A program made the position numbers and the translations under genes. The notes under the pieces were generated by a model, which did no database searches, was not told where the DNA came from, and saw only the letters and a program-made list of their open reading frames with translations. Positions 1-12,331 of a stretch of 64,000 bases of DNA are shown one piece after another (within the stretch, counting starts at the first letter, position 1; the number at the start of each line of letters is the position of its first letter). The stretch is from the NCBI GenBank assembly GCA_963815215.1, contig CAWFFU010000011.1, forward strand, positions 96,001 through 160,000. The letters run 5' to 3'. This DNA is from an uncultured Trueperaceae bacterium (GTDB lineage: Bacteria; Deinococcota; Deinococci; Deinococcales; Trueperaceae).

Positions 1-1097
1 ATTGTCTCCTTGTAGAGACGTTCGGCCGCGGTGAAGTCACCAAGAAACTCGTTTATAAATGCCAAGGATCTCGCTGTCTCCGGACTACGCCGTGTGCGGT
101 GAGCTCGAGTGGCCTCGCCCAACGATCGGTCGTTGAATTCCACAGCCGCACGCAAAGCCCGAAGATCAGGCGCGTCATGAGCTTCAAGATACTTGTCGAC
201 CCTTGGGAGCATTGAGCGCCACTTGTTGACCGCTATTGCACTGTTGAACATCCAATACATGAATTCCTCTTGCCTGAACATCCAACGGGGTACTTCTGAC
301 ATATATCGCCAGAATCGCTCGAACTCACCGGCTTCAAAGTAGGCGTTTCCGGCCTCGCCAAGAACCTCGGCCAACCGGGTTTGAGCGTGGTCAAAAGCAA
401 ATTCAAATGCTTCGATCCATCGCTTGCGTGCAATCAGCACGTCGATGACTCCGTTGACTCCTTCACGAAATGCGGCCCCGAGGTAGTCGCCCAAGAGACC
501 CTGATTTGACTGCGTCCTCCGATTCAGCATGAGTGCATCTTCTATAGCGCTTAGCGCTCCGCCAGCGTCCATCACGGCCCGCTGAATATCGTGCGGGTCA
601 CGCTCCAGCTCGAATAGTTCCTGAGCTTCCGCAATCGTGATTCGGAGATCAGACCCTTCGATAGGAGAGGTGACGATTGCCTCCGCTATCGAAGGAATCA
701 CTTCGCAGGCATGCAGCACGAGTAGATTGGGAGAGCGAATCGACTCGAGAAGGCGAAGGGCCAGTTGGGGAGACTCGTCAGCGTTGACAACGGCAACAGT
801 AATCGGCTCAAGGGCTGGCAGGAAGGACTCAAACACCGCAAACGCATACTCTTCACCAACCCCAAGACCGAACAAGGAGGAGCCTAGCCCGCGGCGGAGG
901 GCTTCCGACAACGCGTTTCCAACGCTCACGGAGTCGCTGCACTCAACTTCGCGCAAATCCAAGAAGACAAGGGGCTGCTCTGGGTCACGTAGGCCAACGA
1001 ACACGCGCCGGAGCCCCCACTCGTCTCCTGCGACCACGAAGACCGGCGACGGCATCTCAAGAAGAGTGCGACGTACGCGCTCGAACCACGTATTCAT
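1..1097 (-). CDS. Putative TPR-containing (MalT/BTAD-like) regulator, N-terminal part; runs off the left edge
   Basis: Not in the ORF track because no stop falls inside the window. Manual translation from ATG 1097 (SD AAGGAGG) gives MNTWFERVRRTLLEMPSPVFVVAG...LRITIAEAQELF...EAGNAYFEAGEFERFW...FLGDFTAAERLYKE, with helical TPR-like segments. Confidence 0.65.
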   Translation of the reverse strand, partial: MNTWFERVRRTLLEMPSPVFVVAGDEWGLRRVFVGLRDPEQPLVFLDLREVECSDSVSVGNALSEALRRGLGSSLFGLGVGEEYAFAVFESFLPALEPITVAVVNADESPQLALRLLESIRSPNLLVLHACEVIPSIAEAIVTSPIEGSDLRITIAEAQELFELERDPHDIQRAVMDAGGALSAIEDALMLNRRTQSNQGLLGDYLGAAFREGVNGVIDVLIARKRWIEAFEFAFDHAQTRLAEVLGEAGNAYFEAGEFERFWRYMSEVPRWMFRQEEFMYWMFNSAIAVNKWRSMLPRVDKYLEAHDAPDLRALRAAVEFNDRSLGEATRAHRTRRSPETARSLAFINEFLGDFTAAERLYKET

Positions 1098-1230
1098 CTT
1101 GCCCTCCTTGTCAACTACTCCTCCTTGCTGTAGCCCCCGTGGGTCTGGTCTGAGTCCCCAACCCCCGTACAGCAAGCCTCAACTACTTGTTCCTGATCTT
1201 CCACCTCGGCAACCATCTATGCTCAGTTCA

Positions 1231-2418
1231 ATGCCGCTCTCCCCCCAGGCACTTAGGCGTCGCGCAAAGAAGTTCCTCGTGCGGAATCAGCTCCAGCTGT
1301 TTGTCCCCGTCCTTCCTGGACTAGAGCGCCTGACGGCCGAGCAGGCGAAGTCTATTGGCCAAGAGATCCGAATCGTGCACGGCGGCATTGAGTTTCGAGG
1401 TGACCTTGCCTCAATCTATCGGGCCAATCTCGCAGTGCGGACGGGAAACCGCGTGCTCCTCCGTCTGGGTCAGTTCCTATCACAAAGCTACCCCATGCTC
1501 TACAATCACGCACGCAGGATTGACTGGCCCGCCGTTCTAGGCAATTGCCCAGACGTCAGTATTGACGTATCGGCCCGCGAGTCTCGCCTCAATCACAAGG
1601 AAGGCATTCGTCAGGCAATTCTTGACGCAATTCGCAGTTCCATGGCGGAGCACGACGTCAACACTGTTCTCGTCGATGGCGGTCCCCTCACCGTGAAGGC
1701 GAGGCTCTACCAAGACAGGTGCACGCTAAGTCTCGACACAACAGGGGAACACCTTCACAAGCGGGGATATCGAAGTCACGCAACAACTGCGCCGATCCGC
1801 GAAACAACGGCAGCTGGCATGCTTCTCCTTGCCCAATCTAAATCGTATGACGTCATAATCGATCCATTCTGTGGGTCCGGAACATTCGCAATTGAGGCCG
1901 AGCTAATCGCTAGGAACTATCCCCCCGGGATGTCCAGACGCTTCGCAATCGAGAACAGTCCTTTGCACGCGCCCGGAATGCTTCGCCACATCGGCCGGCA
2001 GCTGCTCGCGAGTGCTAGCGACCATTCCACTCAGACTGTTCTCGGCTTCGACATCTCGCCGACTGCAATACAATCAGCCAAATACAATGCCGACAAGGCC
2101 CCCACGACAGGGGTCAAGTTCGCTGTGTGCGACGCTTTGGCACTGGACTTCAGCAGTCTCCTACCCGAAGGGACGAAAGGGTTGATCGCGGCCAACCTTC
2201 CCTATGGAGTCCGGCTTGGAACGCGCACGAAGACGCAGTCCTTGGTACGAGCCTTCTGCTCGGTCGTCGCCCGAACTGCTGTGGGATGGGACTTTCTGCT
2301 GATCATGCCAGAAGCAGACCCGGTTCGCGAACCGGGTCTGCTGGTTGAGCGTACACTTTCATTTTCCAACGGAGGCATCCCGGTAGTCGCTTCGTTGGGA
2401 CGTGTGGAGCAACGGTAA
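1231..2418 (+). CDS. THUMP-domain class I SAM-dependent RNA methyltransferase (RlmL/YpsC-like)
   Basis: Motifs SLDTTGEHLHKRGYR, APIRETTAAGML, DPFCGSGT and ANLPYG. Leaderless start: TATGCT 1218-1223, 7 nt, ATG 1231. The ORF-track extension to 637 is antisense to the upstream gene. Confidence 0.85.
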   Translation: MPLSPQALRRRAKKFLVRNQLQLFVPVLPGLERLTAEQAKSIGQEIRIVHGGIEFRGDLASIYRANLAVRTGNRVLLRLGQFLSQSYPMLYNHARRIDWPAVLGNCPDVSIDVSARESRLNHKEGIRQAILDAIRSSMAEHDVNTVLVDGGPLTVKARLYQDRCTLSLDTTGEHLHKRGYRSHATTAPIRETTAAGMLLLAQSKSYDVIIDPFCGSGTFAIEAELIARNYPPGMSRRFAIENSPLHAPGMLRHIGRQLLASASDHSTQTVLGFDISPTAIQSAKYNADKAPTTGVKFAVCDALALDFSSLLPEGTKGLIAANLPYGVRLGTRTKTQSLVRAFCSVVARTAVGWDFLLIMPEADPVREPGLLVERTLSFSNGGIPVVASLGRVEQR

Positions 2419-2456
2419 CGGTTGCGCGCAGCCCGCAGTCGCAAGTGCCCCGCATA

Positions 2457-3527
2457 TCAGATCGCGAACGGCGCGACCGACTCAGCCTTGGCCGACCCGT
2501 TGACCGAAGGGCTAGCGATCGCGGTACCATACTCGACCTGGCCTGCGTCTATCAACGATTCGAAGACAGGCACGATACTCGGATCAAACTGCGTTCCTGC
2601 ACCGTTCACAACGTACCTCAGGGCCTGTCCAACAGGCATGGGGCTTCTGTAAGGCCGCAAACTGGTCAGAGCCTCAAAGACATCCGCGATAGCGATGATG
2701 CGGGACAACTTCGGAATCTCGTCTCCTCGATATCCGAGAGGGTACCCGAGCCCGTCCCATCGCTCATGATGAGCTCGAACCACGTCAGCAATTGGTCTGA
2801 AGCCCTGAGACACGGACGCCAATAGATCTGCGCCATAACCGGGATGCCGCCGGATCTCGGCAAATTCGTCTTCCGAAAGTCGACCATTCTTCATAAGGAT
2901 GTACTCGGGCACAGCAATCTTTCCAATGTCATGGAGAAGGGCGGCCCAGTAGAGCACGTCCAAATCCTCCGCGCTCAATCCCAGGGCTAGGCCGAGAGCA
3001 ACCGCGTTCTTTGCTACGCGACGAGAATGTCCTTGGGTATGATCATCGCGGACCTCAACCGTGCGCGCAAGGCTTTCGAGAACCCTGTCTCGACCGAGAC
3101 TCGACGAACCACGGTCGATGTGCTGCATGGCCGAGGATGCTTTCGGCGCATGCCGACGTCGCAAGAGCCACGCACTCGCCCCAGCAAAGGCGACATACAG
3201 CACCGCCTGTACTACCCACGGTTCGCGTACTTGCACGAATGTCGGAATTGTCGCGTCCATCGCAGCAACCAGGCCTACCCCAAGAGCAAAGGACAGCCCC
3301 CACGAGTACGCGGCTAGCAGGATTGGAATATACAGCAACTGGAGCGCGGCCAGACGAGTCGAAGGAATCACGATGGACACGATTACCAGGACCATCAGTA
3401 GCGCTAGAACACCAATTCCCTTGGCCGGCAGGCCGTTTGAGCGCATCGCCGATCCAGAATCAAGAATCGCGCGCAGCCGCGATATGGCCTTGATTGCGCT
3501 CCTCACGTTGAAGCTCCGGATCTCCAC
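2457..3527 (-). CDS. Membrane-anchored HD-GYP c-di-GMP phosphodiesterase
   Basis: About 4 N-terminal hydrophobic helices, then HTQGHSRRV, LLHDIGK, HHERWDGLGYP and IADVFEAL. Start uncertain (3580, 3527, 3506 or 3446). Confidence 0.88.
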   Translation of the reverse strand: MEIRSFNVRSAIKAISRLRAILDSGSAMRSNGLPAKGIGVLALLMVLVIVSIVIPSTRLAALQLLYIPILLAAYSWGLSFALGVGLVAAMDATIPTFVQVREPWVVQAVLYVAFAGASAWLLRRRHAPKASSAMQHIDRGSSSLGRDRVLESLARTVEVRDDHTQGHSRRVAKNAVALGLALGLSAEDLDVLYWAALLHDIGKIAVPEYILMKNGRLSEDEFAEIRRHPGYGADLLASVSQGFRPIADVVRAHHERWDGLGYPLGYRGDEIPKLSRIIAIADVFEALTSLRPYRSPMPVGQALRYVVNGAGTQFDPSIVPVFESLIDAGQVEYGTAIASPSVNGSAKAESVAPFAI

Positions 3528-3722
3528 CCCATGATTGCCAAATGCGACAACTCAGGTTTGAGGAAGACGCGTACTCCCACGGCTGACGCCTCCTTTCGGC
3601 GTAACCGCAAAGTAGCAGGGTGACGCTTATTGTCCGTATAAACGCCACCCTACACGCACGTCTGGCAAGTTCTCAATCCGTTACGGCGTGCCTACTCCTC
3701 AAGCTGAGTCAGACTGCCAAAG

Positions 3723-3824
3723 CTACCTCTTGATCATGCTCACACCAGCCGTTGCAACGAACGGCATGGCGGCAAGGGCAGCAAACACGATTGCGGCAAA
3801 GATGCGCTTCCCAGTGTTCTTCAT
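3723..3824 (-). CDS. 33-aa secreted peptide precursor MKNTGKRIFAAIVFAALAAMPFVATA-GVSMIKR (candidate signalling propeptide)
   Basis: Below the ORF-track cutoff. ATG 3824 with GGGAGG/GGGA upstream and TAG at 3723-3725. Basic n-region, hydrophobic h-region, Pro and A-x-A site, then a 7-aa tail. Confidence 0.7.
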   Translation of the reverse strand: MKNTGKRIFAAIVFAALAAMPFVATAGVSMIKR

Positions 3825-4072
3825 ATGTGGTCCCATCCTCCCGTTTGGCCTGCGAAAGGCCACAACTACCTACACAGGTCTCCCAAAGCCTGAGTAGTCG
3901 CCTGCTGGTCTCCCAACCTCGCAGACAAATGACTGGCGGTACTCCGCCACCCTACGAACTGTTTGGAGCTTGAATTAGGAGTGAACCGAACCTCTCCTAT
4001 TAGCTCCCATCTCTTCCTGCACGGCGCCCAGAGGACCCCGAATCAAGCTGGCCTCCCAACCACCTTGATATG
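3825..4072 (-). promoter_or_regulatory. Structured ~250-nt 5' leader with repeated UGGGAG hairpin loops
   Basis: Hairpins at 4042-4069, 3965-4007, 3900-3926, 3863-3900 and 3846-3862. G-U pairs work only on the minus strand. UGGGAG at 4053-4058, 4004-4009, 3910-3915 and 3880-3885. Confidence 0.6.
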
Positions 4073-4078
4073 CGTTAC

Positions 4079-4108
4079 AAGCTACCACGTTGGGCAATGT
4101 ATCGTCAA
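4079..4108 (-). promoter_or_regulatory. Sigma70-type promoter for the peptide/HD-GYP transcript
   Basis: TTGACG (4108-4103), 18 nt, TAGCTT (4084-4079), with an extended -10 TG. Confidence 0.6.
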
Positions 4109-4317
4109 CGACGCTGGCATTCATCAGGAGCTTCGACCTAGGCGTATAATGGCGCTTCCACACGGCTTTAGTGGGATGCGCCTGTGGTCAATTGCGCGCA
4201 CCTAGAGCACCGAATACATTATCGTCGCCTAGGGTAGCCTCTCGGTTCAGTAGCAGCGGGCCTCTCACCTCAGCCCTGAGGCGCACCGCGTGGGCTAGAA
4301 AGGCCCTTGGAACAACG

Positions 4318-5982
4318 ATGAGTGAATCCGTACAGATGATGGTTACTAGGAGATTCCCCGGAATCCATCTCGAAAGTGAGGTCCAGGGTTGGGTCTTCCT
4401 CGAGGAGTTCGAGAAGGGCGTGGCAAGCTACGAAGCCACTACGACGCCCACGGCCAAAGACGATCGTTGGCTTGGTGTCTGCTACTTCCAGCTCTTCCGT
4501 GATCTTGATGCACTTGAGGCATTCTATCGAGCGATCAATCGCGGTGAAGACGCAGCTCGGGTGAACGCGGCGCATCTTCTCAAGTTTGTCGAACGATCTG
4601 AGGAAGCCAAGGAAGAACTCTCGAAGGTCGACCCCGAAACTCTCTGCACGTACGACAGGGTTCTATATCATCGGGTCCTTAGCATTCATGAAGAGAACAG
4701 CGGAAATCTTCGAGATGCCCTGAATGCTGCGGAAGAGGCGTGGCGACGTGTCCAGGGCATGCCTGAGTTCGGCCTACTTGCGCCAGCAATTCTTGTTCAA
4801 TTGGCAATCCTCCACGGGCGCATTGGAAGATCCCAGAGGGCCCTATGGTTTCTCGAACGGGGGCTGCAGTTCACAGGACCACTGGAGAATCTGAAGGTCA
4901 GATTGGGGCGGGCCGCCCTACTCATCAACCTTGGTCGATATCAGGAGGCACATGCAGAGCTAGAGTCAGTCGACCTAAGCGAGGCCCCTGCTTACCAGGT
5001 CCAGCAGCGCCTCCTTCACGGGGAACTTGATTGGGCGACTGGAAATCTGGAGCGCGCGATCCAGCAGTTCACGGCAGCATCTCAATCCGCCTTCGCACTC
5101 CAGGCCACGTACGAAGAGTTCCAGTGCCGTTTGTCGCTCGCATGCATTGTGGGAGCACGGAGGGACTTCTCCGTCGCGACGGACCATATGACCCGGGCAC
5201 AAGCACTTATTACCGACCGATCGGACCGCTTGGTCTACCGGTTCCGGGAAGTGCTCTTGCTCTATTGGATGGGCACGTATAAGCCGCAACATGCTCTTGA
5301 AGAGTTTGGGGCACTGGTGGTCGAGTTTGGTGAGATGGGCCTTCTTCAGGAACAGTGCTCCGTACACCTCCACATCGCGAACATCCTGTTTGAGATGGAG
5401 CGAGATGACTACACCCAAGAGCTTGACCGCGTGCAGGCGCTCAGCGTGTCCCTGCAGAACCAGGCTTTCCTATCGAAGGAATGGACGCTGCTCCCAAGAC
5501 TTCAGAAGGCCTCCCAGAAATCGCATGCTCGGATCGCTGGTCGAAGGAACATAGTCTTCGAAGTATTCACGCTTGGCAGCGAGAGGCTCCTTCTTGCAAA
5601 ACGGCCTGTGAACATCCCACTTCGCAGAGGCGTCGAAGTCTTGGCGTTCTTCCTGGAGAACAAGGCCGTGACCCTCAAGCAACTCCTCGCAGAGGTCTTC
5701 CCCGACGACAAGCCACGGAGCGCCAAGTCCTATTTCCATCAGTTCCGCCACCAGCTGCGTGAGAACGTCGAGGGCCTCGAGATCGAGTACGACGGTGAGT
5801 CGAAGATGTACCGGCTCAAGAGCGAGATCGACATTGTCTGGGACGTGTCGGAGCTGCGGGCAGGGCGGATCATGGGCAAGACCGGGTTGTTCCTGCCTAG
5901 CTCCGGGAACGACTGGGCGCTTGCCATCGACCGCTCTCTGGACACGTACAGGGAAGCCGCCGGAGTGCTCGAGATCGCCTGA
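4318..5982 (+). CDS. TPR-repeat protein with C-terminal OmpR/SARP-type winged helix and truncated BTAD-like tail (transcriptional regulator)
   Basis: TPR-like repeats (LGVCYFQLFRDLDALEAFYRAI, LAILHGRIGRSQRALWFLERGL, RAALLINLGRYQEAHAELE, HGELDWATGNLERAIQQFTAA). C-terminal VLAFFLENKAVTLKQLLAEVFPD...KSYFHQFRHQLR...YRL and GLFLPSSGNDWA. Start approximate. Confidence 0.8.
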   Translation: MSESVQMMVTRRFPGIHLESEVQGWVFLEEFEKGVASYEATTTPTAKDDRWLGVCYFQLFRDLDALEAFYRAINRGEDAARVNAAHLLKFVERSEEAKEELSKVDPETLCTYDRVLYHRVLSIHEENSGNLRDALNAAEEAWRRVQGMPEFGLLAPAILVQLAILHGRIGRSQRALWFLERGLQFTGPLENLKVRLGRAALLINLGRYQEAHAELESVDLSEAPAYQVQQRLLHGELDWATGNLERAIQQFTAASQSAFALQATYEEFQCRLSLACIVGARRDFSVATDHMTRAQALITDRSDRLVYRFREVLLLYWMGTYKPQHALEEFGALVVEFGEMGLLQEQCSVHLHIANILFEMERDDYTQELDRVQALSVSLQNQAFLSKEWTLLPRLQKASQKSHARIAGRRNIVFEVFTLGSERLLLAKRPVNIPLRRGVEVLAFFLENKAVTLKQLLAEVFPDDKPRSAKSYFHQFRHQLRENVEGLEIEYDGESKMYRLKSEIDIVWDVSELRAGRIMGKTGLFLPSSGNDWALAIDRSLDTYREAAGVLEIA

Positions 5983-6024
5983 TGGGCTCCGGCCCTGTCG
6001 GCAGCGCTTGTGGTAAGCTCATCA

Positions 6025-6092
6025 CAACGGAAGAGACGGTGGTAGGGAGATCCCGGAGCTGCGGTTGGGAGCCACACGCTCCGGGTTTTTCT
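6025..6092 (+). ncRNA. Candidate ~65-nt small RNA or 3' element with UUGGGAG loop and intrinsic terminator
   Basis: Extended -10 TGG-TAAGCT 6011-6019. Stem CCCGGAGC 6052-6059 / GCTCCGGG 6078-6085 with TTGGGAG at the apex, then TTTTT 6086-6090. Confidence 0.45.
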
Positions 6093-6324
6093 GTCGCGGT
6101 ACCGATGGTGATGGGGCCTCCGACCGGCTCCCCGCCTGGCCCGCCACGTGACCCGGCATTGTTCTAGGCCCCAAGTCATAGGGCCCAAGGCGTCATGGCC
6201 CCGCCATACGCGCGTTCCCAATGGTTTCCCGGGGCTGCTCCTTGGCATTCGTCTTGGACGTCATCCTGAACGTCGTTGCAGCGCAATCGTCGCGCGCAGC
6301 ACGTCGACCGTCGCGCCCGGGCTA

Positions 6325-6399
6325 CGTGCCGGCTGCTGGACGGTTGCGTGCCGGCTGCGGGACGGCTGTAAGAATCCCGTAAGACGAGCTGGCTATACT
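6325..6399 (+). promoter_or_regulatory. Promoter with direct-repeat operator upstream of the candidate sRNA
   Basis: 22-bp tandem repeat 6325-6368, GTAAGA-N5-GTAAGA (6368-6373 and 6379-6384), and -10 TATACT 6394-6399. Confidence 0.5.
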
Positions 6400-6404
6400 C
6401 GCTT

Positions 6405-6493
6405 CGTGGACCTGAGGTAACTCTCCCAGTACCTCTTCCCATCTCTTCCGAAAACCGGGCTCCGCGCCTCCCACGCGGAGTCCACCCTTTTTT
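6405..6493 (+). ncRNA. Candidate ~89-nt sRNA with C-rich (CUCCCA) hairpin loops
   Basis: -10 TATACT upstream. Hairpin GAGGTAAC-[TCTCCCA]-GTACCTC 6414-6435, linker TTCCCATCTCTTCCG, 10-bp hairpin GGGCTCCGCG-[CCTCCCA]-CGCGGAGTCC 6457-6483 (G-U pair only on +), then T6 at 6488-6493. Confidence 0.6.
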
Positions 6494-6717
6494 GGCAACC
6501 CCACGATACAGGCGATCGCCTTCGCGCGCCGTAAAATCCAACGCAGAGTAGTTGTCGGTCCCCGACGCCGTGAAAGGCGTTTGGAGGGCCGGCATGGGCT
6601 GCGCAATCACCGTCACGTCGACCGCGCTTCCGTGCCGCCTTTGCTTGCAGGAGGCACCGGAATTGTGTTAGAAAAGGTAGTTGCCAGCTTAAACGAAATG
6701 AGGAGGAAGCCCCTTTC

Positions 6718-8955
6718 ATGGACGAAAAAGCAAACCCGGCCGAGGGAAGCCCTGTCCCGGCCACCGACCAAGCCCCGGAGGAAGTCACGATCCAGGCCCC
6801 ATCCGCGGCAGCTGATCAGGGAACAGGCACCGCGATGGCGAACGAAAAGGATCTCGACCCACAGGAACGGGCTCCCCAAGAAGACGCCGCAGCGGATACG
6901 ATAGAGAGCGTCGACTCCGACGCAAACGCAGTCACCGAACCGGTGGCTGATGTGCCCGTAGCGGCGCAAGCCGACAACGCGCAAGACGACAACGCGCAAG
7001 ACGACAACTCCGAGATGACGATGGAGGACGTGCTGGCTGCCAGCGATGAGCAGCTCGCGCGCAAGCCTGTCCACCGCGGCATGATCACCAACGGACAGGT
7101 CATCATGCTCTCGCAGGACGGCATCATCGTCGATGTGGGCGCGAAGATCGAGGGCATCCTGCCCTACAACCAGCTCTTCGAGTTCGAGACGAACGCCGAA
7201 GACGCTGCGAAGTACTTCAAGCCCGGCGACGAGATCCAGGTCTACGTCGTCCGCTCGGACATCCCCAACAACACCATCGTGCTCTCCAAGAAGCGGGCTG
7301 ACCAGGAACGCGCCTGGAACCTGTTGCAGGAGATCCACGACAAGGAGAAGCCGGTCGAGGTCGAGATCATCGAGAAGGTTCGCGGCGGGCTCGTCGCCAA
7401 CCTCGGGATCCGCGCCTTCCTGCCGGCCAGCCAGGTCGATGTGCGCCGGGTCAACGACCTCGCGCCCTTCGTGGGGCTGCGCCTCAAGGTCAAGATCATC
7501 GAGCTCAACCGACGCCGCAACCGCGTCATCATCTCGCGTCGGTCGATCCTCGAAGAGGAGATCGCCGAGAAGAAGTCCGAGACGCTCCAGAAGCTCGAGC
7601 CCGGTATCAAGCTCGACGGCGAGGTCGTGGAGATCACCGACTTCGGGGTGTTCGTCAACCTCGGCGGGATCGACGGCCTGGTCCACCGCAGTGAGCTCAC
7701 GCACGGGCGCTTCAGCCACCCACGCGATGTCGTCAAGGTGGGCGAGAAGGTGCGCGTCGAAGTCCTCGACATGGACCTCGAACGCGAGCGCATCAACCTG
7801 TCCATGAAGTCGCTGCTGTCGAACCCCTGGGACAACGTCCTGGCCAACTACAGCATCGGCCAGCGGATCTCGGGCAAGGTCACCAACCTCACCCCGTTCG
7901 GTGCCTTCGTGGAGATCGAACCGGGCCTCGAAGGACTCATCCACGTCAGTGAGATGAGTTGGACCAAGCGCGTGCGTCACCCCAAGGAGATCGTGACCGA
8001 GGGCGACGAGGTCGAGGCCATGATCCTCAAGGTCGACACCAGCCAGCAGCGCATCTCGCTCGGTCTCCGTCAGACCCAGCCCGATCCCTGGAGCAGCCTG
8101 CCGGACCGCTACCCTCCCGGCACCGAGGTCACCGGCCCGATCACCGGCATCACCGACTTCGGCGTGTTCATGGAGATCGAAGAGGGCATCGAGGGCCTGG
8201 TCCACATCAGCGAGCTGAGCCACGACCACATCGAGAACATCAACGACCACTTCAAGCGTGGCGACGAGGTCACCGCGGTGATCCTCAACATCGATCCGGT
8301 CGAGCAGCGCGCCAGCCTGTCGCGTAAGCGGCTCCTCCCCTTCTCTGCCACCGACCTGGAATCCGTCGGCACCGGAGCCCCCGCCTCTCGCGGCGGCGCC
8401 CGTCGCGGCGGCCGGCGCAGTCGGCGCGGCTCGGACATCGACTACGATTACAGCTACGCTTCGTCCGATGCCAGCAACAAGGCCACCACGAAGCTCGGTG
8501 ACGTCTATGCTGACCTCTTCGCCCAGTTCGGTCTGACTGACAACAAGGGCGATCAGGATGAGGACTCCAGCGGGACCGACGAGGCAACGGCCGGCGCTGC
8601 CGAAGCGGCCGAGGCCGGTGCCGAAGCTTCCGCCGACCAGGGGATCGCAGCCGACGAGCCGCAGGCCGCCGTTGAGGCGACCGACACGCAGAGCGAGCCC
8701 GTCGCCGCCGCCCCGGAGGAAGCCGCCCCGGAGGAAGCCGAGCCGGCAGCGGTGAGCGCGCAACCTGAAGTCGCCGTCGAGGCCAAGAAGGCCGATGCCG
8801 ACGAGGTCGACCCCGAGAACGCCATCGATGCAGCCGAGGCCGCGGCCATGCTCACGGCCGCCTTCCGCGAGGGCAAGCGACCCAAGGCAGAGCAGAAGGC
8901 CGAAGCCACGGTCGAAGAGGAGAAGGCGGAGGACGCCGAAACCTCGAACGCCTGA
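6718..8955 (+). CDS. rpsA: 30S ribosomal protein S1 with long acidic N- and C-terminal extensions
   Basis: Five S1 repeats ([83 protein letters not shown]). SD GAGGAGG. Confidence 0.97.
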
Positions 8956-8971
8956 TCTCGAATCCGCACTA

Positions 8972-9010
8972 CAGAAGGGGCGTCGCTCATCGCGAGCGAC
9001 GCCCCTTCTG
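8972..9010. terminator. Bidirectional hairpin between convergent rpsA and htpX
   Basis: Perfect 17-bp inverted repeat CAGAAGGGGCGTCGCTC / GAGCGACGCCCCTTCTG. Confidence 0.8.
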
Positions 9011-9096
9011 CTTGCGGTCACGCTGACGGCGCGCTGGCTCGCCCCCCTCCCGGGAACCCCAGCGCCCCGTCCCCGGTTGGGAGGCCGCAGGAGCCC

Positions 9097-10083
9097 TTAC
9101 ATCCGCCGCAGACGGTCGATTCTCTGTTGGATCGGAGGGTGGGTGGCGAACAGATCCATGCTGTTGTGGTGCGCGAGGGGATTGACGATGAACATGTGGC
9201 GCACGCCTTCGGAGACCTCCAAGTCCTCGCCCTGGTAGCCGCCGAGCTTCTCCAGCGCGCTCGCCAGCCCCTCCGGATTGCGCGTGATGTAGGCGCCGGT
9301 GGCGTCCGCCAGGAACTCACGGCGGCGACTGACGGCCAACCTCAGGATGGTCGCCAGGATCGGCCCGAGCACGAGCAAGGCGATCAGCAGGACCACCATG
9401 ATGCCCTGACCACGGTTGTTGCCCTGGCCGGACCCGCCCCCGCTACCGCGCCGGCTTCGCGATCCACCGAACGCACCGAACTGGAACCAGCGCAGCACCA
9501 GGTCGCGCAGGATCACGATGGCGCCGACGGTCGCCGCCAGCATCGACAGGAACCGGATGTCGTAGTTGCGCACGTGCGCCATCTCGTGGGCGACCACCCC
9601 CTCCAGCTCCTGCCGGTCCATCATGTCGATGAGACCTCGGGTGACCGCGATCGAGGCGTGCTGCGGGTCGCGCCCGGTGGCGAAGGCGTTGGGGGCAGGC
9701 GAGTCGATCACGTATATGTTGGGCGTCGGAACCCCTGCCCCGAGGGCGACTGCTTCGGTGACATTGACGAGATAGCGATGCTCGTCCTTGGTGGCCTTGC
9801 GGGCGCCTGCCGCGCCCAACGCGATCTGATCGCTGAACCAGTATGCCGCCACGCTCTGCCCGGCGCCGATGAACCCCGCTACCGACACGAAGAACAGCGC
9901 CGAGCCCGGATTCGTGACTTGCGCCAGAAGGTATCCGATGGCACCCAACAGCGCCACCATGATCAATCCCAGGACCCAGGACATCCTGCGATTGGACGCC
10001 TGCCAGTCGAGGAGGTTGATGCGCCTCCCGGTGGCCCTGTCAGTGATGACGTTCGGCAGGACCCCTGCGCTGCGTGACGTCAT
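9097..10083 (-). CDS. htpX: M48 zinc metalloprotease HtpX
   Basis: PNAFATGR, VVAHEMAHVRNYD, SRRREFLADA and FATHPPI motifs. Follows lemA. Confidence 0.92.
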   Translation of the reverse strand: MTSRSAGVLPNVITDRATGRRINLLDWQASNRRMSWVLGLIMVALLGAIGYLLAQVTNPGSALFFVSVAGFIGAGQSVAAYWFSDQIALGAAGARKATKDEHRYLVNVTEAVALGAGVPTPNIYVIDSPAPNAFATGRDPQHASIAVTRGLIDMMDRQELEGVVAHEMAHVRNYDIRFLSMLAATVGAIVILRDLVLRWFQFGAFGGSRSRRGSGGGSGQGNNRGQGIMVVLLIALLVLGPILATILRLAVSRRREFLADATGAYITRNPEGLASALEKLGGYQGEDLEVSEGVRHMFIVNPLAHHNSMDLFATHPPIQQRIDRLRRM

Positions 10084-10106
10084 GATGGGTCCGTCGCCGG
10101 CTCAGC

Positions 10107-10661
10107 TCAGCCCGCGAACGACACCTTCGGCGCTTCGCGCTCGGCTTCGGGGATCTCGAGGAAGACGGCCTTCTTCTTGTTCATCGGGCCCGCCATGAAC
10201 ACGCCCGGCACCGTCTCGATGGCGTTGTTGAACTGGAGCACGGCGTCGTTGTAGAACTGCCGCGCGTAGGCGATCTTGTTCTCGACGCTGGACAGTTCCT
10301 CCTGGAGCATCTTGAAGTTCTCGTTGGCCTTGAGCTCGGGGTAGTTCTCGGCGATAGCGAACAACCGACCCAGCGCACCCGTCATCTGGTTCGCGGCCTC
10401 GGCCGACTCACCCACGTTCTTCGCGTTCATGAGGGCCTGCCGCGAGTGCGCGACCTCCTCGAACACGGCCTTCTCGTGGGCGGCGTAGCCTTTGACAGTC
10501 TCTACGAGGTTGGGGATCAGGTCGACGCGTCGCTTGAGCTGAACGTCGATCTGGCTCCACGCGTTCTCGTAGCGATTCTCCAAACTGATGATCCGGTTGT
10601 AGACCCCAACCGCCGAGATCACCAGGATGGCCAGAATGACCAACACCACGATGGTCGCCAT
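10107..10661 (-). CDS. lemA: LemA family protein
   Basis: AWSQIDVQLKRRVDLIPNLVETVKGYA and ENYPELKANENF. Confidence 0.95.
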   Translation of the reverse strand: MATIVVLVILAILVISAVGVYNRIISLENRYENAWSQIDVQLKRRVDLIPNLVETVKGYAAHEKAVFEEVAHSRQALMNAKNVGESAEAANQMTGALGRLFAIAENYPELKANENFKMLQEELSSVENKIAYARQFYNDAVLQFNNAIETVPGVFMAGPMNKKKAVFLEIPEAEREAPKVSFAG

Positions 10662-10753
10662 AAGACCTCCTGGCGTTCAGTCTACTGGACAGCGCCGATT
10701 GCACAGAGCGAAAATCTACGCCGCCCCGCTGTCACGACCTGCGGCGGACGCCG

Positions 10754-11857
10754 TCAGGACGATCGACGGCGGATCACGCCGCCGCCCAGCAGACGGTCGC
10801 CCTGGTAGAGGACGGCAGACTGACCGATCGTGACCGCGAACTGCGGTTCCTCGAAATCGAGCCGGAAGCCGTCACCCGTGGCCGTCAACATCGCCGGCAC
10901 CGGCGCCTGCCGGTAGCGGACCTGAGCGTTCACCTGCCGCGGCAGCTTCGCTTCGTCCACCAGGAAGTTGCCGCGTTCCGCCGTGAGACCCGACCAGAAG
11001 CACATCTCGCGAGGGCCTACCACGACCGTGTTGTCGGCGGGGCGGAGGTCGATGACGAAGCGCTCCAGGTGCGACTTCCACAGCCCCAACCCCTTCTTCT
11101 GGCCGATCGTGTAGAACTGCACGCCGCGGTGCTCGCCGACCACCGCGTCCCCCTGGCTTGCATCCACCACCGGGCCCGGCCGTTCCCGGCTCGCGTCCTG
11201 GAGATAACCGCGGACCGTGTCCGGCACGAAGCACAGACCCGATGAGCTCTTCTTCTCTGCCGTGAGCAGACCGCGATCGGCCGCGAGCGAACGTACGTCA
11301 CGCTTGCTCAGTTCCCCGAGCGGGAACAGCAGGTATTGCAGGATGTCGCGCGGAAGCGCCCACAGGAAGTACGTCTGGTCCTTGTCGTCGTCCCGGCCCC
11401 GGTGCAGCTCGACTCCGTCGGGCCCGTCCACCCGCCGCACGTAGTGTCCGGTGGCAAGGAAGTCGCACCCCAGGACTCGCGCCCGCTCGATGAAGGCGCC
11501 GAACTTGATGTGCCGGTTGCACCACACGCACGGGTTCGGCGTCTCCCCGGCCTCGTAGGTCGGCACGAAAGGATCGACGACGATCTCCTGGAACCGGTCG
11601 CGGAAGTCGAGCAGATAGAAGGGGATGTCCACCGCGTCGGCGACACGACGGGCGTCGTACGCGGCCGCCGGGCTGCAACAAAGGTCGAAAGCGCCGCTCG
11701 GGCCCTCGTCGGGCCAGAACCGGGCCATGGTACCGACCACCTCGAAGCCCCCCTCGCGCAACAGTGCGGTGGCCACCGACGAGTCGACGCCGCCCGACAT
11801 GGCACTCAGGACCTTCGGGGCGACAGCACGCTTCGGGATGGGATCGAACCGTTCCAC
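10754..11857 (-). CDS. mnmA: tRNA 2-thiouridylase MnmA
   Basis: AMSGGVDSSV, TPNPCVWCNRHIKF, ATGHY and KDQTYFL. Confidence 0.96.
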   Translation of the reverse strand: MERFDPIPKRAVAPKVLSAMSGGVDSSVATALLREGGFEVVGTMARFWPDEGPSGAFDLCCSPAAAYDARRVADAVDIPFYLLDFRDRFQEIVVDPFVPTYEAGETPNPCVWCNRHIKFGAFIERARVLGCDFLATGHYVRRVDGPDGVELHRGRDDDKDQTYFLWALPRDILQYLLFPLGELSKRDVRSLAADRGLLTAEKKSSSGLCFVPDTVRGYLQDASRERPGPVVDASQGDAVVGEHRGVQFYTIGQKKGLGLWKSHLERFVIDLRPADNTVVVGPREMCFWSGLTAERGNFLVDEAKLPRQVNAQVRYRQAPVPAMLTATGDGFRLDFEEPQFAVTIGQSAVLYQGDRLLGGGVIRRRSS

Positions 11858-11962
11858 GGCCCATCAGTCTAGCTGACCGGCTCGCGCATGACCCGGGATG
11901 GGCGACACCCTCTTCGGGGAGCGCGGCGCACGTGCGGTAGACTGGTCCGCACGGAGGTGGAT

Positions 11963-12331
11963 GTGAAAGGCGCTCGCATCCTGCAGCTCGTCTTGGTCAT
12001 CGTGTTGGCGCTCTATCTGGTGGCGTTCAACAACGTGAACCCGGACCCCCTGACGCTGCCGCTTCTCCCCATGCTGATCCCGATGCCGCCGGTGATCGTG
12101 GTGATCGTCGCGTTGCTGGGCGGCTGGCTGGTGGGCTGGCTCCCCACCCGGATCGCGCTGTGGCGCCGAGCTCGCGAAGTCCGTCGGCTGCGCCAGCGCT
12201 TGAACGAGCTGGAGGGTGAGCACACCGCACGGGAGACCGATGCCGGCGAGCGCGCCCCCGTCATCCCGGACCGCTTCCCCGTCATCCCGGACAGGCCCCC
12301 ACAGCGCGACGAGGGAACCGAGTCGTCGTGA
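11963..12331 (+). CDS. LapA/DUF1049-like small membrane protein
   Basis: SD GGAGG then GTG. Two TM helices around AFNNVNPDPLTL, then a coiled coil and a duplicated PVIPDR. Stop overlaps the recJ start. Confidence 0.7.
   Translation: MKGARILQLVLVIVLALYLVAFNNVNPDPLTLPLLPMLIPMPPVIVVIVALLGGWLVGWLPTRIALWRRAREVRRLRQRLNELEGEHTARETDAGERAPVIPDRFPVIPDRPPQRDEGTESS

Follow-up and report, generated by a model that had tools for sequence, protein, structure and literature searches.

In a 64,000-nucleotide (nt) stretch of DNA (the window) from the metagenome-assembled genome of an uncultured Trueperaceae bacterium (Deinococcota), we found a gene pair that we read as a peptide signalling cassette. Systems of this kind are known, but were not expected in this phylum; the interpretation is well supported within the reach of sequence analysis, structure prediction and genome comparison. 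The pair consists of a propeptide gene of 33 codons plus stop (3723..3824, minus strand) and, divergent from it and 494 nt away, a gene for a receptor-regulator of 554 residues (4318..5982, plus strand); coordinates are window positions unless marked C11. More specifically, the pair is probably a chromosomal peptide-receptor signalling cassette that is RRNPP-like, uses a different DNA-binding module and is not a member of the RRNPP family. A preliminary description of this DNA had proposed such a peptide-receptor system: the gene, the folds and the pairing on which it was based hold, but its functional core is carried by analogy with known systems.

The 33-residue product, MKNTGKRIFAAIVFAALAAMPFVATAGVSMIKR, has a basic n-region (K2, K6 and R7), a 12-residue hydrophobic core (residues 9-20), a proline at position 21 and small side chains at 24 and 26. 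From this residue pattern and its conservation, and not from SignalP, codons 1-26 (3747..3824) are predicted to encode a Sec-type signal peptide, and codons 27-33 (3726..3746) the tail GVSMIKR that would remain after cleavage past Ala26. A Shine-Dalgarno sequence, GGGAGGA (3836..3842, minus strand), lies 11 nt before the ATG and is kept as cGGgAGGATGGGA in an alignment of 28 loci. The propeptide gene is present at 48 loci, in 38 distinct DNA versions, of which 37 encode exactly 33 residues. Residues M1 to F9, A26 and R33 are unchanged in all 37 of these versions, G27 is kept in 35, S31 in 33, Q32 in 31 and P21 in 29, while position 24 is V, A or G. The third codon positions at conserved residues vary freely (entropies of 1.83 bits at G5, 1.90 at A26, 1.80 at G27 and 1.50 at R33), which indicates that selection acts at the protein level. 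Judged from these comparisons, the open reading frame (ORF) is a real gene under protein-level selection, and the division into a Sec signal peptide and a seven-residue tail, as first described, is borne out by the residue pattern and its conservation in 37 versions. The ORF could have been the truncated start of a longer protein, but it is never so in these relatives.

That the ORF is a chance reading frame and no gene at all might be argued from its shortness and its lack of annotation. The gene table of a Deinococcus taeanensis plasmid, a table that is incomplete by its own description, likewise has no coding sequence at the homologous mini-ORF. This explanation is refuted by the codon pattern of purifying selection and by the retention of position, strand and length at 40 of the 42 orthologous Trueperaceae loci.

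The pattern of variation also bears on the fate of the product. Substitutions in the hydrophobic core stay within hydrophobic residues, and tail positions 28-30 are the most variable of the gene (2.5-2.8 bits), lying between fixed ends. The tail consensus in most relatives is G-x-x-x-S-Q-R, from whose S-Q the window tail GVSMIKR and that of the closest relative, GVSMHSR, deviate. The invariance of the first nine residues despite synonymous variation goes beyond what an n-region needs, and would fit a 33-residue mini-protein that stays uncleaved and signal-anchored in the inner membrane, with its cytosolic MKNTGKRIF tethering or inhibiting the TPR regulator. The putative signal peptidase I site (A26, the small residue 24 and Pro21) and the tail ends G27, S31, Q32 and R33 are, however, also under selection, and the other subfamilies have an ordinary, variable n-region followed by tails that are long, Gly-rich or tandem, as in processed propeptides. 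We therefore prefer a processed propeptide and regard a membrane tether as improbable, keeping it in consideration because the invariant N-terminus is otherwise unaccounted for.

The product of the divergent gene starts most likely at the ATG at 4318, which orthologue alignments favour over the GTG at 4171. Its residues ~1-405 (4318..5532) form, in an AlphaFold2 (AF2) model with a predicted local distance difference test score (pLDDT) of 90.8, a superhelix of ~20 helices, in agreement with the earlier assignment of a TPR protein. In a structural search the best match of this domain was MalT domain III (1hz4), with Z 28.3 and a root-mean-square deviation (rmsd) of 3.5 over 332 of 366 residues, and the nearest solved folds include the peptide receptors NprR-NprX (Z 26.1), the Rap protein of phage phi105 with its peptide (25.2), RapI (22.7) and AimR (22.1), with PlcR at 14.1. 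With Foldseek, the highest target TM-score (0.73) belonged to RapJ with CSF. A profile search against PDB sequences found NprR at 8e-5, amid generic TPR matches down to 2.5e-17, and some homologues of the receptor have weak TPR_MalT Pfam matches. Common ancestry of this sensor with RRNPP or MalT-type sensors is possible.

Residues ~412-554 (5551..5979) form a separate domain, for which an independent AF2 model (pLDDT 92.6) indicates a SARP-type winged helix followed by the first BTAD helices. When the C-terminal 150 residues were modelled alone, AfsR (Z 11.8, rmsd 2.8 over 138 residues) and EmbR (Z 11.3) stood clear of the next match (8.2); Foldseek agrees on AfsR and EmbR, followed by OmpR/PhoB-family domains. 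The proposal of a C-terminal, OmpR/SARP-like DNA-binding domain is thereby upheld. Long-subfamily relatives of ~640 residues extend into a full BTAD domain (Pfam, 27.7 bits in P0143), and the Trueperaceae form ends after about two BTAD helices. On the receptor itself, Pfam gave weak TPR matches and NNH6 at residues 439-496, with no match to Trans_reg_C, to an N-terminal helix-turn-helix (HTH) family or to a P-loop or NB-ARC family, and NCBIfam gave no family beyond generic TPR matches; receptors of the family carry the annotation hypothetical protein, TPR-repeat protein or BTAD protein. The receptor should be cytoplasmic, since on reading its sequence, with no predictor run, we noted no signal peptide or membrane segment, and since it ends in a predicted DNA-binding domain. 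As a separate observation, a metagenomic protein of 750 residues (P0261) has an N-terminal Ser/Thr kinase domain fused to a TPR sensor of the receptor type (profile positions 2-396).

A profile built from 22 receptors retrieved 239 clusters at E <= 1e-30 among 1.84 billion representatives, and matched 149 of 301 sampled Deinococcota genomes at 1e-20, with up to four matches per genome. By coded family, matches were found in 52/102 (f1), 82/112 (f2), 0/14 (f3), 5/62 (f4) and 9/10 (f5) genomes. To score the pairing we used a fixed mini-ORF filter (ATG start, 20-70 residues, basic n-region, early hydrophobic 10-mer). The first set comprised 63 distinct receptor loci for which 650 nt or more of upstream DNA was available; at 56 of them a signal-peptide mini-ORF was found on the opposite strand within 600 nt, against an expected 0.044 per locus (background: 25 ORFs of this type in flanking DNA of 169,756 nt). 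Among 40 further, previously unexamined loci, 30 had a divergent mini-ORF, against 4/40 in the same-strand control of the same stretch. In both sets, loci of kin are not independent. An adjacent signal-peptide ORF at homologous TPR genes, which the preliminary description had led one to expect, was thus found in both sets. The filter missed candidates that can be seen by eye at L022, L077 and the D. gobiensis plasmid locus (a less hydrophobic precursor of 44 residues). On this comparative evidence, the pairing of receptor and propeptide genes is a family-wide feature of ~100 loci across the phylum Deinococcota.

The peptide tails fall into many unrelated classes: some end in R or K(P), others in P-P-x-x-C-S-x-C, short ones in I-G-G, and a further class has Gly-rich spacers after an A-D-P junction. 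Receptor paralogues within one genome have each their own peptide class. Two orthologous Trueperaceae loci encode 43-residue precursors that contain two copies of a hexapeptide, whose sequence differs between the two genomes (AGLEHR and SGAERR). Both repeat copies have therefore changed in concert, which suggests that the functional product is the short unit with Arg at its end. Other tandem precursors contain AASSGTFPP three times, SGATAFGGG twice or DPGGGTGGGT twice. Multi-copy propeptides have been described for RRNPPA systems (PMC9765709, PMC11343458).

The same observations must be weighed against the possibility that the peptide is the output of the regulator and not its ligand. The TPR-SARP protein would then sense another cue, as MalT senses maltotriose, and activate the adjacent gene, whose secreted peptide would have another site of action: it might address a membrane sensor or other cells, or be a small peptide with antimicrobial or surface activity. 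The best structural match of the sensor, MalT domain III, binds a sugar; a regulator and its target would predict adjacency and co-inheritance equally well; and a test of sequence divergence (below) does not single out the tail. On the other hand, a private peptide class for each receptor paralogue, changing with the receptor clades, fits a cognate pair better. The predicted mature parts are very short (5-7 residues in Trueperaceae), their fixed ends enclose a hypervariable core, and the neighbourhood of the window locus showed no genes for modification, immunity or export. We consider an output peptide rather unlikely, and a cognate ligand the better reading of the pair.

The preliminary description had given the propeptide gene its own near-consensus promoter. 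A conserved element is indeed present, TTGACG (4108..4103), an 18-nt spacer ending in TG, and TAGCTT (4084..4079), all on the minus strand (4079..4108), but it lies ~250 nt upstream of the ATG instead of next to it, and a generic sigma-70 scan of 3400..4400 returned 0 promoter-like sites. The alignment of 28 loci shows TTGACn-17/18-TAnnCT, often with TG before the -10 box (TGG-TAGCTT at 4087..4079 in the window). A strict pattern is found at 27 of 38 distinct loci, with sites 168-307 nt before the ATG except at L016, where the matches, at 30 and 71 nt, are doubtful. From the distance between this element and the ATG, the transcript would have a 5' leader of ~245 nt (3825..4072, minus strand, start point inferred). 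The leader contains 4-5 hairpins with UUGGGAG loops, in the window at 4059..4053, 3918..3907 and 3891..3876, and RNAalifold on 14 leaders predicts 30 pairs, 17 of them with compensatory changes. Rfam gave no match at the locus in a search of window positions 1..12000 with E up to 1. CsrA was considered as a reader of the UUGGGAG loops and was ruled out, as no CsrA (PF02599) is encoded in the 97% complete genome.

Contigs from one metatranscriptome run, from relatives mostly ~90% or more alike, cover 3546..3687 and 3710..4050. Since such contigs carry no strand, ends or level, and DNA may occur in an RNA library, they give a weak hint that ORF and leader are transcribed; no contig of that run covers 4078..4500, a gap that shows nothing.

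Downstream of the propeptide gene and on the same strand lies a gene for an HD-GYP-type cyclic di-GMP (c-di-GMP) phosphodiesterase with N-terminal membrane segments (2457..3527, minus strand; Pfam HD_5, 6.4e-39), possibly a regulated neighbour of the cassette. Its start is overlapped by a short upstream ORF of 25 codons (3503..3577, minus strand) with a conserved GAAAGGAGGCGT-N5-GTG. Eight orthologous loci were examined; the initiation region (Shine-Dalgarno-N5-GTG) is kept in 7/7 that match the pattern, and the encoded peptide, of 20-26 codons, is not conserved across them. Such a layout, in which a conserved hairpin and another short ORF separate the propeptide ORF from the HD-GYP gene downstream, would also suit a regulatory leader of the secretion-monitoring or attenuating kind, which would control the HD-GYP gene and whose own peptide would be functionless. 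The gene downstream, however, varies among orthologous loci: it is an HD-GYP gene in many but not all, a relative of an 850-residue TPR protein (TPR850-like) in others, or a GerE gene on the opposite strand, and the link between mini-ORF and receptor persists. The amino-acid sequence of the tail is, moreover, under selection, and we consider a leader function of the ORF very improbable.

Two kinds of repeated DNA elements are candidate regulatory sites, which the sequence comparisons offer as leads. In the subfamily of the window a 23-nt box occurs twice. Copy 1, of 23-24 nt (4143..4166, minus strand), is of the GCGTCnnGGnCGnCnnnTATACG type, reads CGTATAAT on the plus strand, lies upstream of the propeptide promoter and may be the -10 box of the receptor gene or an operator. 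Copy 2 (3635..3657, minus strand) follows the stop codon of the propeptide gene and precedes the HD-GYP gene, within a hairpin whose arms covary. In a genome scan with the box matrix, these two copies, from which the matrix was partly built, scored best (27.8 and 22.0 bits), and the next matches (20.2 and 18.8 bits) were unconvincing, so that a regulon defined by this box was rejected. The second kind is found in the divergent intergenic regions of the long subfamily, where L023, L024, L080, L093 and L094 have 3-5 direct repeats at an exact spacing of 11 nt that run into a -10 box, for example CGTATTGGG four times or nCTGAnAAGnn five times. Winged helices of the OmpR/PhoB/SARP type use sites of this kind, and SARP regulators bind 11-bp-spaced direct repeats at or near the -35 region. 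Exact 5-mer chains of at least three units occur at 2/40 loci, compared with 0/40 distal controls.

By analogy with RRNPP systems, we infer export, cleavage, re-import, binding, a regulatory outcome and density dependence for the cassette. The precursor would be made from its own promoter through the structured leader, exported by Sec and cut by signal peptidase I after Ala26. The heptapeptide released in this way (GVSMIKR here) would pass the outer membrane and build up outside the cell, to be taken up again by one of the many oligopeptide ABC importers. Inside the cytoplasm it would bind within the TPR superhelix of the receptor and alter how the C-terminal SARP-type winged helix engages the divergent intergenic DNA, thereby setting how strongly the pair itself is transcribed, together with neighbours such as the gene for the HD-GYP c-di-GMP phosphodiesterase. 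The host genome (3.32 Mb, 70% G+C) encodes an S26 signal peptidase and 24 family-5 solute-binding proteins, a capacity for import of oligopeptides. It also encodes an Omp85 homologue, a family that among the control genomes is confined to diderms, and on this basis it is reasonable to take the host for a diderm with an outer membrane, as the preliminary description had done. Co-folding of the TPR domain (residues 1-410) with the whole 33-residue precursor gave scores of 0.50, 0.02 and 0.02, which speak neither for nor against binding.

Several observations weigh against the proposed ligand-receptor cassette. Unrelated eukaryotic TPR proteins reach Z values similar to those of the peptide receptors (24.9 for an APC subunit and 24.6 for APPBP2), so that the likeness to RRNPP receptors is one of fold and no proof of kinship. 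A precursor of 33 residues is at the short end of the range for Sec export, and a plain signal peptide would not normally have an invariant cytosolic stretch such as MKNTGKRIF. On co-variation of the tail with the receptor, for which the preliminary description had suggested looking, the divergence data do not discriminate: the partial Mantel correlation of tail with TPR divergence (0.37) does not exceed that of the signal-peptide core (0.45), and therefore gives no evidence of co-evolution beyond co-inheritance. No operator or 11-nt repeat was recognised in the window itself, and the lag-11 mean over 61 loci (15.7, against 14.1 in controls) is a slight excess that is not general. A specific link between the cassette and nearby Opp-like genes was rejected: an orthologous binding-protein gene lies 5-24 kb from the cassette in 4/5 genomes, which is not significant because such transporter genes are abundant (13-37 binding-protein genes per genome). 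Finally, two Trueperaceae orthologues lack a 33-residue signal-peptide gene. In L066 (about 1900..1940) its place is taken by a 12-residue ORF, MIEHRWLGVEPR, which has no signal peptide and lies behind the usual leader motifs; in L046 (2197..2286) it is taken by a hydrophobic ORF of 19 residues, which contains a VLGC similar to a lipobox and is accompanied by a consensus promoter and a terminator.

The closest functional parallel would be the RRNPP(A) systems of Bacillota and their phages and plasmids (Rap-Phr, NprR-NprX, PlcR-PapR, Rgg-SHP and AimR-AimP), in which the gene for a cytoplasmic TPR receptor likewise adjoins a small propeptide gene whose product is exported. The resemblance extends to a short C-terminal peptide as the predicted functional part, to multi-copy precursors in some cases, to private pairs of paralogues and to the fold (Z 22-26). 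In contrast, the receptor described here has neither an N-terminal HTH nor a Rap-type effector bundle, its SARP-type winged helix is C-terminal, and it matches no RRNPP-specific Pfam or NCBIfam family. The two genes are divergent and not co-oriented, and the host belongs to the Deinococcota and has a predicted outer membrane. The earlier suggestion of an independently assembled peptide system is plausible, because the DNA-binding fold differs from that of RRNPP receptors and sits at the opposite end of the protein.

SARP regulators have their DNA-binding module at the N-terminus, and large ones such as AfsR are arranged as SARP, NTPase, TPR. The C-terminal 140 residues of the receptor superpose on the winged helix and first BTAD helices of AfsR and EmbR, members with DnrI/ActII-ORF4 of the SARP type, and 11-nt direct repeats next to a -10 box occur at the loci of several relatives. 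Here, however, the module is C-terminal (residues ~412-554 of 554), with the sensor before it, and the BTAD domain is a stub in the Trueperaceae form. The sensor domain is closest in fold to MalT domain III and the STAND-type TPR (SUPR) sensors. Unlike MalT, the receptor lacks an NTPase (NOD) domain and a LuxR-type HTH and begins directly with the repeats, and its proposed ligand is a peptide from the neighbouring gene and not a sugar. The receiver-SARP (REC-SARP) response regulators of Deinococcus (COG3947, for example Deide_19260) have, in the same phylum, the same order of an N-terminal signal-receiving domain and a C-terminal SARP module (PMC3564903); the TPR-SARP proteins differ from them in a TPR superhelix of 400 residues in place of the receiver and in the adjacent propeptide gene.

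A cytoplasmic TPR receptor with an adjacent secreted propeptide is treated as a hallmark of Bacillota and their mobile elements in three sources (PMC10075063, PMC9765709, PMC12700828), in whose main text the string 'Deinococc' is absent. Literature searches outside subscription journals turned up no description of a peptide system of the RRNPP-like or TPR-SARP kind for Deinococcota. If our reading is correct, the logic of these systems would also be at work in another bacterial phylum, whose members have an outer membrane, and there with another type of DNA-binding module. This would bear on how easily such circuits evolve and on how short peptides pass two membranes in both directions. It seems to us an even question whether Deinococcota have, phylum-wide, unannotated peptide pheromones, each with its own cytoplasmic TPR-SARP receptor, that is, quorum sensing of the RRNPP type across an outer membrane, which would have arisen convergently or have inherited its sensor from an ancestor in common with RRNPPA and MalT-type proteins. 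The rooting of the RRNPPA tree is described as an open need (PMC12700828). The family would offer a remote structural relative for this rooting and, if the sensor ancestor is shared, the TPR-SARP proteins would be the outgroup that RRNPPA phylogenies still lack. It would also provide dozens of orthogonal peptide-receptor pairs, some of them on plasmids of named Deinococcus isolates and so directly testable. Carriers of long-subfamily pairs among the named strains include D. taeanensis TS293, D. gobiensis I-0 and D. ficus.

The cassette lies in ~7.5 kb of DNA (window 1..6000; C11:94.6-102 kb) with 55-60% G+C, against 70% for the genome. This stretch also holds the HD-GYP gene, a gene for a THUMP/RlmL-like methyltransferase, and the gene for the 850-residue protein (3..1175 and on to C11:94623, minus strand). 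The latter has TPR matches only, and it is relatives of this protein that replace HD-GYP after the propeptide gene at many orthologous loci. An equal dip in G+C is found at the orthologous loci of relatives, and rpsA is the next gene after the receptor gene in most Trueperaceae loci, so that the cassette looks like an old chromosomal resident and not a recent import.

Some further genes were noted in the surroundings. A regulator of the GerE/LuxR type with 185 residues (L075 11914..12468) adjoins the gene of the 850-residue TPR protein. To the left of the low-G+C island (L075 4488..11698; C11:86.5-93.7 kb) lies a cluster of peptide-handling genes, for an M3 oligoendopeptidase, an SDR protein, an M20 peptidase, a family-5 binding protein and two permeases of the Opp/Dpp type. 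In the ESM Atlas, look-alike clusters that combine BTAD and TPR were seen in Pseudomonadota, Actinomycetota and Chloroflexota, and are to be taken as leads only. On the other side of the cassette, ribosomal protein S1 (6718..8955, plus strand) has, according to its translation, 745 residues, with long acidic, Ala/Glu-rich extensions at both ends.

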